Shown here piece after piece: positions 39,045 to 48,133 of a stretch of DNA of 64,000 nucleotides. The notes under the pieces are model-generated. The model was not told the DNA's origin. It saw nothing but the letters and a program-made list of their open reading frames with translations, and made no database searches. The stretch lies in NCBI RefSeq assembly GCF_057098645.1, contig NZ_CM169472.1. One strand, given 5' to 3'. The position numbers and the translations under genes are program-made. How positions within the stretch are numbered: position 1 is the first letter of the stretch; each line of letters begins with the position of its first letter.

Positions 39045-40640
39045 ATGAAACCTGTAAAACCACCTCGTATTAATGGACGAGTGCCGGTCCTGTCGGCACA
39101 GGAAGCGGTGAATTATATTCCCGACGAAGCAACACTTTGTGTTTTAGGCGCTGGCGGCGGTATTCTGGAAGCCACCACGTTAATTACTGCTCTTGCTGAT
39201 AAATATAAACAGACTCAAACGCCACGTAATTTATCGATTATTAGTCCAACAGGGCTTGGCGATCGCGCCGACCGTGGTATTAGTCCGCTGGCGCAAGAAG
39301 GTCTGGTGAAATGGGCATTATGTGGTCACTGGGGACAATCGCCGCGTATTTCTGAACTCGCAGAACAAAATAAAATTATTGCTTATAACTACCCACAAGG
39401 TGTACTTACACAAACCTTACGCGCCGCCGCAGCCCACCAGCCTGGTATTATTAGTGATATTGGCATCGGGACATTTGTCGATCCACGCCAGCAAGGCGGC
39501 AAACTGAATGAAGTCACTAAAGAAGACCTGATTAAACTGGTCGAGTTTGATAACAAAGAATATCTCTATTACAAAGCGATTGCTCCAGATATCGCCTTCA
39601 TTCGCGCTACCACCTGCGACAGCGAAGGCTACGCCACTTTTGAAGATGAGGTGATGTATCTCGACGCATTGGTTATTGCCCAGGCGGTGCACAATAACGG
39701 CGGTATTGTGATGATGCAGGTGCAGAAAATGGTTAAGAAAGCCACGCTGCATCCTAAATCTGTCCGTATTCCGGGTTATCTGGTGGATATTGTGGTGGTC
39801 GATCCGGATCAAACCCAACTGTATGGCGGTGCGCCGGTTAACCGCTTTATTTCTGGTGACTTCACCCTTGATGACAGTACCAAACTTAGCCTGCCCCTAA
39901 ACCAACGTAAATTAGTTGCGCGGCGCGCATTATTCGAAATGCGTAAAGGCGCGGTAGGGAATGTCGGCGTCGGTATTGCTGACGGCATTGGCCTGGTCGC
40001 CCGGGAAGAAGGTTGTGCTGATGACTTTATTCTGACGGTAGAAACAGGTCCGATTGGCGGAATTACTTCACAGGGTATCGCCTTTGGCGCGAACGTGAAT
40101 ACCCGTGCCATTCTGGATATGACGTCCCAGTTTGATTTTTATCACGGTGGCGGTCTGGATGTTTGTTATTTGAGTTTTGCTGAAGTCGACCAGCACGGTA
40201 ACGTCGGCGTGCATAAATTCAATGGCAAAATCATGGGTACCGGTGGATTTATTGATATCAGTGCCACCTCGAAGAAAATTATTTTCTGCGGCACGTTAAC
40301 TGCGGGCAGTTTAAAAACAGAAATTGCCGATGGCAAATTGAATATCGTCCAGGAAGGACGGGTAAATAAATTTATTCGGGAACTACCGGAAATTACTTTT
40401 AGCGGAAAAATCGCTCTCGAGCGAGGGCTGGATGTTCGTTATATCACTGAGCGCGCCGTATTCACGCTGAAAGAAGATGGCCTGCATTTAATCGAAATCG
40501 CCCCTGGCGTCGATTTACAAAAAGATATTCTCGACAAAATGGATTTCACCCCAGTGATTTCGCCAGAACTCAAACTGATGGACGAAAGATTATTTATCGA
40601 TGCGGCGATGGGTTTTGTCCTGCCTGAAGCGGCTCATTAA
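39045..40640 (+). CDS. ydiF: Acyl-CoA:acetate CoA-transferase YdiF
   Basis: 531-aa ORF, family I CoA-transferase. Confidence 0.9.
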   Translation: MKPVKPPRINGRVPVLSAQEAVNYIPDEATLCVLGAGGGILEATTLITALADKYKQTQTPRNLSIISPTGLGDRADRGISPLAQEGLVKWALCGHWGQSPRISELAEQNKIIAYNYPQGVLTQTLRAAAAHQPGIISDIGIGTFVDPRQQGGKLNEVTKEDLIKLVEFDNKEYLYYKAIAPDIAFIRATTCDSEGYATFEDEVMYLDALVIAQAVHNNGGIVMMQVQKMVKKATLHPKSVRIPGYLVDIVVVDPDQTQLYGGAPVNRFISGDFTLDDSTKLSLPLNQRKLVARRALFEMRKGAVGNVGVGIADGIGLVAREEGCADDFILTVETGPIGGITSQGIAFGANVNTRAILDMTSQFDFYHGGGLDVCYLSFAEVDQHGNVGVHKFNGKIMGTGGFIDISATSKKIIFCGTLTAGSLKTEIADGKLNIVQEGRVNKFIRELPEITFSGKIALERGLDVRYITERAVFTLKEDGLHLIEIAPGVDLQKDILDKMDFTPVISPELKLMDERLFIDAAMGFVLPEAAH

Positions 40641-40653
40641 CAGGAGTATCACG

Positions 40654-41804
40654 ATGGATTTTTCTTTAACTGAAGAACAAGAACTGCTGCTGGCCAGTAT
40701 TCGCGAACTGATTACGACTAACTTTCCGGAAGAGTATTTCCGCACCTGCGATCAAAACGGGACATACCCGCGTGAATTTATGCGGGCACTGGCGGATAAC
40801 GGTATTTCCATGCTTGGCGTGCCGGAAGAATTTGGTGGTATCCCTGCGGATTACGTCACCCAGATGCTGGCGCTGATGGAAGTGTCAAAATGCGGTGCTC
40901 CGGCATTTTTGATTACCAACGGTCAATGTATTCACAGTATGCGCCGTTTCGGTTCTGCAGAGCAGCTACGTAAAACGGCAGAAAGCACCCTGGAAACGGG
41001 TGATCCCGCCTATGCCCTGGCGTTGACGGAGCCAGGCGCAGGCTCAGACAACAACAGTGCCACCACCACTTACACGCGTAAAAACGGCAAGGTTTACATC
41101 AACGGACAGAAAACCTTTATTACCGGTGCGAAAGAGTACCCATATATGCTGGTGCTGGCGCGCGATCCTGAACCGAATGATCCGAAAAAGGCCTTCACAC
41201 TGTGGTGGGTCGACTCCAGTAAGCCCGGCATTAAGATTAACCCGCTGCATAAAATCGGCTGGCATATGCTCAGCACCTGCGAAGTCTATCTCGACAACGT
41301 GGAGGTTGAAGAGAGCGACATGGTGGGCGAAGAAGGAATGGGGTTCCTCAATGTGATGTACAACTTTGAGATGGAGCGCCTGATCAACGCCGCGCGCAGC
41401 ACCGGCTTTGCCGAATGCGCCTTTGAAGATGCCGCCCGCTATGCCAACCAACGTATCGCTTTTGGTAAACCCATTGGTCATAACCAGATGATCCAGGAAA
41501 AACTGGCGCTGATGCGATTAAGATCGACAACATGCGCAACATGGTGCTGAAAGTAGCATGGCAAGCCGATCAGCATCAGTCACTGCGCACCAGCGCGGCG
41601 CTGGCAAAACTGTATTGCGCACGTACCGCAATGGAAGTCATTGATGATGCGATTCAAATCATGGGCGGTCTGGGCTATACCGATGAAGTGCGCGTCTCCC
41701 GCTTCTGGCGTGATGTCCGTTGTGAACGTATCGGCGGCGGTACAGACGAAATTATGATTTACGTAGCAGGTCGGCAGATCCTGAAAGACTATCAGAACAA
41801 ATAA
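40654..41804 (+). pseudogene. ydiO: Acyl-CoA dehydrogenase YdiO, interrupted by an apparent 1-bp deletion near 41520-41524
   Basis: Frame from MDFSLTEEQELL... ends at 41550 after ...QEKLALM-RLRSTTCATWC; the conserved C-terminus MRNMVLKVAWQADQ...RQILKDYQNK continues in another frame (41532-41804). Confidence 0.75.
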
Positions 41805-46430: not shown

Positions 46431-46432
46431 TC

Positions 46433-48133
46433 ATGCATCCCACAGGCCCGCATCTCGGGCCTGATGTTCTGTTTCGAGAGTCCAAAATGAAAGTGACATT
46501 AACGTTTAACGAACAACGTCGTGCGGCGTATCGTCAGCAAGGGCTATGGGGCGATGCTTCGCTGGCCGATTACTGGCAGCAGACCGCTCGTGCGATGCCA
46601 GACAAAATTGCCGTGGTCGATAATCATGGAGCATCGTACACCTATAGCGCGCTCGATCACGCCGCGAGCTGTCTGGCAAACTGGATGTTAGCGAAGGGTA
46701 TTGAATCAGGCGATCGCATCGCATTTCAACTGCCAGGCTGGTGTGAATTTACCGTTATCTATCTTGCCTGCCTGAAAATCGGTGCGGTTTCCGTACCGCT
46801 GTTGCCTTCCTGGCGGGAAGCAGAACTGGTATGGGTGCTCAATAAGTGTCAGGCAAAAATGTTCTTTGCACCGACGTTGTTTAAACAAACGCGTCCGGTA
46901 GATTTAATCCTGCCGCTGCAAAATCAGCTTCCACAACTTCAACAAATTGTCGGCGTGGACAAACTGGCTCCCGCCACCTCTTCCCTCTCATTAAGTCAGA
47001 TTATCGCCGACAATACCCCACTGACCACGGCGATAACGACCCACGGCGATGAATTAGCTGCGGTGCTGTTTACCTCCGGAACCGAGGGTCTGCCAAAGGG
47101 CGTGGTGCTTACGCATAACAATATTCTCGCCAGTGAGCGGGCTTATTGCGCGCGGCTGAATCTGACTTGGCAGGATGTCTTTATGATGCCTGCGCCACTC
47201 GGCCACGCAACGGGCTTTCTGCATGGCGTAACAGCACCATTATTGATTGGTGCTCGCAGCGTGTTGTTAGATATTTTCACTCCTGATGCGTGTCTCGCGC
47301 TGCTTGAGCAGCAGCGTTGCACCTGTATGCTCGGCGCAACGCCGTTTGTCTATGATCTTTTGAATTTAGTAGAGAAACAACCCGCAGACCTTTCAGCGCT
47401 GCGCTTCTTTCTTTGCGGCGGTACCACAATCCCCAAAAAAGTGGCGCGTGAATGCCAGCAGCGCGGCATTAAATTATTAAGTGTTTATGGTTCCACAGAA
47501 AGTTCGCCGCATGCGGTGGTGAATCTCGATGATCCTTTGTCGCGCTTTATGCACACCGATGGTTACGCTGCCGCAGGTGTAGAGATTAAAGTGGTCGATG
47601 ACGCACGCAAGACCTTACCGCCAGGTTGCGAAGGTGAAGAAGCCTCGCGTGGCCCCAATGTGTTTATGGGGTATTTTGATGAACCTGAATTAACCGCCCG
47701 TGCCCTGGATGAAGAAGGCTGGTATTACAGCGGCGATCTCTGCCGCATGGATGAGGCTGGCTATATAAAAATTACCGGACGCAAAAAAGATATTATTGTC
47801 CGCGGCGGCGAAAATATTAGCAGCCGTGAAGTGGAAGATATTTTATTGCAGCATCCTAAAATTCACGATGCCTGTGTGGTTGCAATGCCCGATGAACGTT
47901 TAGGTGAACGATCATGCGCTTATGTCGTGCTGAAAGCGCCGCATCATTCATTATCGCTGGAAGAGGTGGTGGCTTTTTTTAGCCGTAAACGGGTCGCAAA
48001 ATATAAATATCCTGAACATATCGTGGTAATCGAAAAACTACCGCGCACTGCCTCAGGTAAAATACAAAAGTTTTTGTTAAGAAAAGATATTATGCGGCGA
48101 TTAACGCAGGATGTCTGTGAAGAGATTGAATAA
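46433..48133 (+). CDS. fadK: Short-chain acyl-CoA synthetase FadK (YdiD)
   Basis: 566-aa ORF with AMP-binding motif TSGTEGLPKG; alternative start at 46487 (MKVTLTF) is possible. Confidence 0.9.
   Translation: MHPTGPHLGPDVLFRESKMKVTLTFNEQRRAAYRQQGLWGDASLADYWQQTARAMPDKIAVVDNHGASYTYSALDHAASCLANWMLAKGIESGDRIAFQLPGWCEFTVIYLACLKIGAVSVPLLPSWREAELVWVLNKCQAKMFFAPTLFKQTRPVDLILPLQNQLPQLQQIVGVDKLAPATSSLSLSQIIADNTPLTTAITTHGDELAAVLFTSGTEGLPKGVVLTHNNILASERAYCARLNLTWQDVFMMPAPLGHATGFLHGVTAPLLIGARSVLLDIFTPDACLALLEQQRCTCMLGATPFVYDLLNLVEKQPADLSALRFFLCGGTTIPKKVARECQQRGIKLLSVYGSTESSPHAVVNLDDPLSRFMHTDGYAAAGVEIKVVDDARKTLPPGCEGEEASRGPNVFMGYFDEPELTARALDEEGWYYSGDLCRMDEAGYIKITGRKKDIIVRGGENISSREVEDILLQHPKIHDACVVAMPDERLGERSCAYVVLKAPHHSLSLEEVVAFFSRKRVAKYKYPEHIVVIEKLPRTASGKIQKFLLRKDIMRRLTQDVCEEIE

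Follow-up and report, generated by a model that had tools for sequence, protein, structure and literature searches.

The closest described counterpart of the locus studied here is the ydiF-ydiO / ydiP / ydiQRST-fadK locus of Escherichia coli K-12 (b1694-b1701). FadK (YdiD), together with YfcYX, has been placed in anaerobic beta-oxidation with nitrate by reviews citing Campbell et al. (2003) and Morgan-Kiss and Cronan (2004), and in the review passages dealing with YdiO this protein appears only as a 'suggested' alternative to FadE (PMC3896788). Elsewhere, YdiO is described as having 'limited functional information' (PMC6412132), and its deletion or overexpression had minimal effect in reverse beta-oxidation work (PMC13126070). 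A ydiP mutant of K-12 showed poor growth and filamentation at 15 °C, and chromatin immunoprecipitation sequencing (ChIP-seq) and genetics placed YdiP at cspE and cspA, with the protein renamed CsiP (PMC9283627). Here we analysed a 64,000-nucleotide (nt) stretch of contig NZ_CM169472.1 from assembly GCF_057098645.1, hereafter the window, in which positions 39045-48133 are this same ydi locus and in which ydiO and ydiP are both frameshifted. An earlier note on this DNA, made from its letters, had called the locus an anaerobic fatty-acid oxidation cluster; that function is documented for fadK and only suggested for ydiO (PMC3896788; PMC6412132). We hold with high confidence that the window carries two real, inherited single-base deletions of different age in a known locus, most likely the outcome of lineage-specific decay of a dispensable anaerobic module under weak selection.

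The identity of the locus is plain. Positions 39045-48133 run exactly from the start codon of ydiF to the last base of the fadK stop codon, and the eight genes (ydiF, ydiO, ydiP on the opposite strand, ydiQ, ydiR, ydiS, ydiT and fadK) are colinear with those of K-12 MG1655, with aroD upstream and ppsA downstream in the window, in K-12 MG1655 and in the O145:H28-type genome RM9872 (NZ_CP028379.1) alike. Nucleotide identity to K-12 is 97.5-98.8% for each of the eight genes. Among 5426 complete RefSeq E. coli genomes, which formed the comparison set for all counts of complete genomes below, 5346 aligned to at least 80% of the 9.1-kb cluster, and 26 O145/O145:H28-type chromosomes gave the best matches. 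This likeness to the known locus is far beyond chance, and the gene identities and layout first proposed hold for every named part, by colinearity with K-12 and by Pfam domains. Not all eight frames are intact: ydiO measures 1151 nt and ydiP 911 nt, with a 1-nt deletion in each, and the other six genes have full-length open frames in comparison with K-12.

The features of the first lesion, in ydiO, are as follows.
40654-41804, plus strand: ydiO, acyl-CoA dehydrogenase pseudogene, 1151 nt against 1152 nt in K-12, 'frameshifted' in RefSeq O145 genomes.
41512-41516, plus strand: ydiO frameshift site, ATGCG against ATGGCG in K-12, at codons 287/288.
41548-41550, plus strand: premature TGA of the N-terminal YdiO fragment of 298 amino acids (aa).
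41532-41804, plus strand: leftover C-terminal YdiO open reading frame (ORF) in the original frame, 90 aa, covering Pfam Acyl-CoA_dh_1 profile positions 67-149 of 150.

Alignment to K-12 and RM9872 showed that one G of the GG pair at K-12 nt 861/862 is gone (after window position 41514), so the disruption of ydiO that had been suspected from the window is a 1-nt deletion. Past Met287 the frame continues for 11 wrong codons to the TGA, giving a product of 298 of the 383 residues. This fragment contains the N and M domains of Acyl-CoA_dh and only profile positions 1-65 of the 150 of the C-terminal domain; with positions 67-149 on the separate 90-aa ORF, no single polypeptide carries the N, M and complete C domains of the acyl-CoA dehydrogenase (ACAD) family. 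A 60-mer spanning the ydiO junction was found exactly in 26 of the 5426 complete genomes, all of O145/O145:H28 type and originating from several laboratories, and a further 5322 genomes matched it with the single gap that denotes the intact allele, so the site is intact in about 98% of complete genomes. Furthermore, the exact 298-aa product occurs on at least 1000 public contigs that their sources name O145:H28, and the RefSeq annotation already marks ydiO as 'frameshifted' in O145:H28 genomes. The ydiO deletion is real, inherited and fixed across the O145:H28-type clade, and the pseudogene as such is already known from public annotation, although we found no relevant literature on O145:H28 pseudogenes or on a ydiO pseudogene. 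It is a clean single-base marker of this clade, present in 26 of 26 clade assemblies and absent from the roughly 5300 other genomes with a match there.

The second lesion lies on the opposite strand, in ydiP.
41847-42757, minus strand: ydiP (csiP), AraC-family regulator pseudogene, 911 nt against 912 nt in K-12.
42144-42148, minus strand: ydiP frameshift site, A5 on the coding strand against A6 in K-12, PE164 and RM9872, at codons K204-K205.
42056-42058, minus strand: premature TGA of the 233-aa YdiP fragment.

The A6 tract at K-12 nt 610-615 (Lys204-Lys205) is thus an A5 tract here, read as T5 on the plus strand, and the predicted product has 204 native and 29 wrong residues before the TGA at 42058-42056. 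According to Pfam, the 233-aa product keeps only the Cupin_2/AraC_binding domain, and HTH_18 (E = 4.7e-21) sits in the shifted frame; the ligand-binding domain is therefore no longer joined to the helix-turn-helix (HTH) domain as in AraC/XylS regulators, which bears out the suspicion that this AraC-type gene is broken. The distribution of the allele is quite different from that of the ydiO deletion. No exact match to its junction 60-mer was present in the 26 O145 complete genomes, and among all 5426 only 3 unrelated genomes had one; 4796 of the 4800 genomes that matched lie in the 95-99% identity band, which is that of the intact one-gap allele (98.4%), with 3 exact and 1 lower. Because the allele is absent from the 26 complete genomes and lies in a homopolymer, sequencing error was a fair suspicion for ydiP. 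The exact 233-aa product was nevertheless present on 14-19 further contigs (NCBI GCA_029357705.1; Logan ERR12122442, SRR26133514 and others), and every contig with this product has the split ydiO (298 + 90 aa) adjoining. Two of the retrieved loci (L011 and L012) are 100% identical to the window in DNA over 7.6-7.8 kb, the private single-nucleotide polymorphisms (SNPs) of the window included, and the third (L010) differs by one base in 12.7 kb, at window position 44401. The ydiP deletion is real and inherited, and it is confined to a small sublineage. Since the intact O145-type YdiP occurs on at least 1000 contigs, the frameshift is a minority allele, found in less than 2% of the clade. It is undescribed in the papers searched and is a case of ordinary homopolymer slippage. 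The statement that two genes of the cluster are disrupted is consequently correct, with the qualification that one lesion is clade-wide and already a RefSeq pseudogene and the other belongs to a small sublineage only.

The relative age of the two deletions follows from the position of the window among its relatives. The closest complete genome differs from the window by 2 SNPs and 1 indel over the 9.1-kb cluster, and the comparison with RM9872 gave 20 SNPs and 2 indels in 58 kb. When polarised with PE164 and K-12 as outgroups, 13 of these SNPs were derived in the window and 7 in RM9872; one of the indels was derived in the window, which kept the ancestral state at the other (in fumD). This polarisation makes the window a sister lineage to the 26 complete O145:H28-type genomes, with the ydiO deletion in common. 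Within the window's sublineage there is one further change in the cluster, YdiR R182H (G to A at window position 44401), which is present in the window and in ERR12122442 and absent from GCA_029357705.1, L010 keeping the ancestral G; R182H is therefore later than the ydiP frameshift. The nesting gives the order ydiO deletion, ydiP A6 to A5, YdiR R182H. Residue R182 aligns to a poorly conserved interdomain linker of solved alpha subunits of electron-transfer flavoprotein (ETF), and for this reason R182H gives no sign of damage; a damaging effect was considered and rejected, as the alignment to the solved structures offers no evidence for one, and the change is probably neutral.

Considering these results, we propose a model for the history of the locus. 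The common ancestral branch of all O145:H28-type strains lost a G of the ydiO GG pair, which halved the C-terminal helical domain, and this first lesion would have been fixed by clonal descent. Later, in a small sublineage that includes the window, the ydiP A6 tract slipped to A5 and parted the ligand-binding half of the regulator from its HTH half, and R182H, presumably without effect, then arose within that sublineage. The clade would then lack YdiO acyl-CoA dehydrogenase/enoyl-CoA reductase activity and the sublineage would also lack DNA binding by YdiP, with ydiQRST, ydiF and fadK intact but bereft of the presumed partner dehydrogenase. From the layout, no polar effect on other genes is expected, since no gene would follow ydiO in its transcription unit and ydiP stands by itself.

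The decay of the module, as distinct from the existence of the lesions, has several points against it. The loss of function of the two products is predicted from domain truncation, and six of the eight genes are intact in all O145 assemblies examined, so that no decay is visible for the module as a whole. Of the three disrupting events in the window, two fall within the cluster, which makes up 14% of the window's length, and the excess is marginal (binomial p = 0.055). Counted by gene, four of the approximately 60 K-12 genes in the window are broken (ydiO, ydiP, ydhV and ydhY, the last two by one IS1 event), that is 2 of 8 in the cluster and 2 of 52 outside, which is again marginal (Fisher p = 0.08). 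For mutations private to the window lineage, the cluster shows no enrichment (3 of 14, p = 0.38). As to the sublineage, some of the 14-19 contigs with the 233-aa YdiP may be repeat assemblies of one isolate, with three sample accessions listed. The earlier note had asked whether a pathway is being lost; the ordered series of hits fits such a loss, but these statistics do not demonstrate it, and the mutations are too few to settle whether the loss is progressive.

Lesions of the same cluster were also found in other lineages. A lineage 99.98-100% identical to K-12 MG1655 carries a 2738-bp deletion with a 7-bp microhomology (L013, positions 5743-5749; SRR22715061, SRR2239614) on about 99 contigs, in which ydiP and ydiQ are gone and ydiO is joined, after approximately codon 243, to the final part of ydiR. 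A second, different -1 frameshift in ydiO occurs on 30 contigs, and ydiP A5 alleles together with an intact ydiO are found in the mouse strains M1/M3 and in LR130532, where ydiP has 908 nt and thus further indels that may be an assembly error. The different ydiP frameshift of RM9873-C1 (G5 to G4) may also be an assembly error. The pattern across lineages fits a dispensable accessory module that is lost now and then. The frameshifts annotated for fadK, ydiN and ydhP in PE164 (NZ_CP114128.1), the nearest relative outside O145, are several in a single assembly and look more like assembly error than biology.

Among other explanations, adaptive inactivation survives best, although we consider it unlikely. 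According to this explanation, strains that lost YdiO, and later YdiP, would have been favoured in the niche of O145:H28 (cattle gut or food chain), for example because a costly or harmful anaerobic redox module was shed or cold-shock control was rewired. The fixation of the ydiO lesion in a successful pathogen clade, the independent lesions in other lineages, the destruction by IS1 of a second anaerobic oxidoreductase operon in the window (ydhY-ydhV) and the cold phenotype of the K-12 ydiP mutant (PMC9283627) are all compatible with selection. Clonal fixation needs no selection, however, the ydiP allele is rare in the clade, and purifying selection on the cluster is strong across E. coli, with a ratio of nonsynonymous to synonymous differences (pN/pS) of 0.067 and the ydiO site intact in nearly all complete genomes. 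We therefore retain decay under weak selection.

That the ydiP A-tract is a reversible on/off switch, or contingency locus, is highly improbable. The recurrence of A6 to A5 in at least two other, unrelated backgrounds (M1/M3 and LR130532) would speak for a switch, but the LR130532 gene with its extra indels may reflect assembly error, a 6-nt tract is generally known to mutate far too slowly for phase variation, all but four of the 4800 matching genomes lie in the identity band of the intact allele, and A5 is stably inherited with linked SNPs in the sublineage.

Retention of function through ribosomal or transcriptional slippage or through assembly of split proteins is more improbable still. 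The downstream parts are open in their original frames (the 90-aa YdiO remnant and 98 codons with the YdiP HTH), and a -1 ribosomal shift at ATG|CG would be expected to restore wild-type YdiO. There is, however, no slippery heptamer at the ydiO site (CTGATGCGA), and the break falls inside a single folded domain, between Pfam positions 65 and 66 of 150. The YdiP remnant has neither a start codon of its own nor a ribosome-binding context, and the gene caller gave only a 70-aa ORF there. Efficient transcriptional slippage is known for runs of roughly 8-9 A/T or longer, far above the length of A5. Rescue by recoding was accordingly rejected on sequence grounds, with no slippery site in ydiO and too short a tract in ydiP.

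Finally, the idea that sequencing or assembly introduced one or both frameshifts into genes that the living strain has intact, which the earlier note had named as the finding that would overturn its reading, is almost certainly wrong: the ydiP lesion does lie in a homopolymer, a classic error site, it is missing from the 26 complete O145 genomes, and nearby frameshifts seen in single assemblies (RM9873-C1 ydiP; PE164 fadK, ydiN and ydhP) may be errors, but the ydiO deletion is shared by 26 independent complete assemblies and at least 1000 contigs, the truncated YdiP is on 14-19 other contigs from short-read Logan and NCBI assemblies, with two retrieved loci identical to the window in DNA down to its private SNPs, and the window has a single derived indel in 58 kb against its nearest relative. 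Neither frameshift should be 'corrected' in annotation.

The remaining features of the cluster are six intact genes and one intergenic region.
39045-40640, plus strand: ydiF, acyl-CoA:acetate/3-ketoacid CoA-transferase, 531 aa, Pfam CoA_trans (E = 1.2e-49), 98.6% nucleotide identity to K-12, same product as WP_000805699.1 in RM9872.
42758-43072, no strand assigned: divergent ydiP-ydiQ intergenic region, the presumed promoter region of ydiQRST-fadK, from gene coordinates and sequence reading.
43073-43837, plus strand: ydiQ, ETF beta-type subunit, 254 aa, Pfam ETF (2.1e-35).
43857-44795, plus strand: ydiR, ETF alpha-type subunit, 312 aa, Pfam ETF and ETF_alpha, with the private R182H.
44851-46140, plus strand: ydiS, flavoprotein resembling ETF-quinone oxidoreductase (ETF-QO), 429 aa, Pfam DAO/FAD_binding_3 and ETFQO_UQ-bd.
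46137-46430, plus strand: ydiT, ferredoxin-like protein, 97 aa, RefSeq 'ferredoxin family protein'.
46433-48133, plus strand: fadK, medium/short-chain acyl-CoA synthetase, 566 aa by the K-12 start, Pfam AMP-binding (6.5e-88) and AMP-binding_C.

All four parts of the ETF/ETF-QO/ferredoxin module YdiQRST are thus present with intact frames, the ferredoxin match of YdiT being weak (Fer4_9, E = 3.5e-4, 21.0 bits) and below the curated Pfam cut-off of 27 bits. For fadK, the Prokaryotic Genome Annotation Pipeline (PGAP) places the start at 46487, with a product of 548 aa. Between the window and K-12 the cluster has 29 nonsynonymous and 131 synonymous differences, and the low pN/pS to which they correspond indicates that the cluster has historically been under strong purifying selection. 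An intragenic sigma-54 motif reported in K-12 between fadK and ydiP (GCGGCACGGAAACTGCA; PMC4591121) is found here with 2 mismatches (GCGGTACGGAAACCGCA) at 46783-46799 on the minus strand, inside fadK.

The regulation of the cluster deserves a caveat. The divergent AraC regulator of the first description is present as an AraC-type gene on the opposite strand; its control of the neighbouring ydi genes is suggested only by this divergent position, and the sole experiments on YdiP point to cold-shock genes (PMC9283627). The FNR-associated sequence of K-12 at ydiP/ydiQ (TTGACGTAAATCAA; PMC1802558) lies inside ydiP, at window positions 42609-42622, and reads TTGACGTAAATCAG in the window, with one mismatch at the last base of the second half-site. 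The same change is present in RM9872, and PE164 appears to have it as well, this site not being among those that group PE164 with K-12; the change is therefore not specific to the clade.

Taken together, the strains might form a natural allelic series, ydiO-null and then ydiO ydiP double-null on a background of intact ydiF, ydiQRST and fadK, but that this series has real phenotypes is doubtful, and we put it a little below adaptive inactivation in likelihood. If it were true, YdiO-dependent anaerobic use of fatty acids would be lost clade-wide and cold adaptation would be altered in the sublineage, as YdiP of K-12 is the cold-shock regulator CsiP; this would bear on the cold-chain survival of a food-borne Shiga-toxin producer and would provide a ready-made test of the role of the module. 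In any case, the clade offers a natural ydiO knockout in which the ETF module is intact, and could help to settle the role of YdiO and YdiQRST; in the sublineage, a food-borne pathogen with a natural knockout of ydiP (csiP), the reported cold-shock role is testable. The ydiP A5 allele marks the sublineage and, like the ydiO deletion, is a possible typing marker. What our analysis adds to the earlier note is the proof that both lesions are real, their difference in age and spread, the caveat on the documented role of YdiP and the result that so few events do not demonstrate a progressive loss; otherwise, the result matters little beyond the biology of the strain.

Several other differences were observed elsewhere in the window. 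At 17233-18000, a 768-bp IS1 replaces 984 bp present in RM9872, PE164 and K-12. The anaerobic oxidoreductase operon ydhYVWXUT has thereby lost its upstream region, the whole of ydhY and the first 269 nt of ydhV, and is the second anaerobic redox module broken in the window. Among the complete E. coli genomes, no single contiguous match spanned either IS1 junction at ydhV/ydhY. The fumD gene (18388-18597; T at 18408) is intact in the window, an ancestral state shared with PE164 and K-12, and has a 1-nt deletion in RM9872, where it is annotated as frameshifted. Past btuC, positions 58692-64000 are colinear with K-12 and PE164 (ihfA, pheT, pheS, rplT, rpmI), whereas RM9872 carries at this place an island encoding a phage integrase and a replication endonuclease, an insertion that the window lineage does not have. 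As for the 13 private SNPs of the window (e.g., at 11382, 12039, 13652, 22172, 30973, 37546, 44401, 55530 and 58262), 11 are GC to AT transitions, with 9 G-to-A against 2 C-to-T on the plus strand (binomial p = 0.065), whose GC skew is -0.037. This bias may reflect replication-strand mutation asymmetry or chance.

Compared with known systems, the locus is that of K-12 MG1655 in its eight genes, their order and orientation, its flanks and its domain content, and differs in that ydiO and ydiP are intact in K-12 and carry a 1-nt deletion each in the window. The RM9872-type O145:H28 locus is nearer, with the identical ydiO deletion and only the 2 SNPs and 1 indel noted above over the 9.1-kb cluster; the 303-aa ydiP frame is unbroken in RM9872 and in 25 of the 26 O145:H28 complete genomes, and the window adds the A6 to A5 change, a synonymous change in ydiO and YdiR R182H. 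In organisation, the cluster can be likened to caiTABCDE/fixABCX, in which, as is generally known, an ACAD-type flavoenzyme (CaiA) is accompanied by a dedicated ETF (FixAB), the ETF-QO-like FixC and the ferredoxin FixX, and YdiO and CaiA have been grouped together as ACADs able to act on enoyl-CoA (PMC13126070; PMC13246756). That system is a different locus outside the window with a different substrate, and the likeness is one of organisation only. Lastly, although the scale is small here, with 4 of about 60 window genes affected, the window resembles the reductive evolution of pathogenic E. coli and Shigella, in which single-base frameshifts and IS-mediated deletion in non-essential metabolic genes are clonally fixed; it has lesions of both kinds, in ydiO and ydiP and in ydhY-ydhV.

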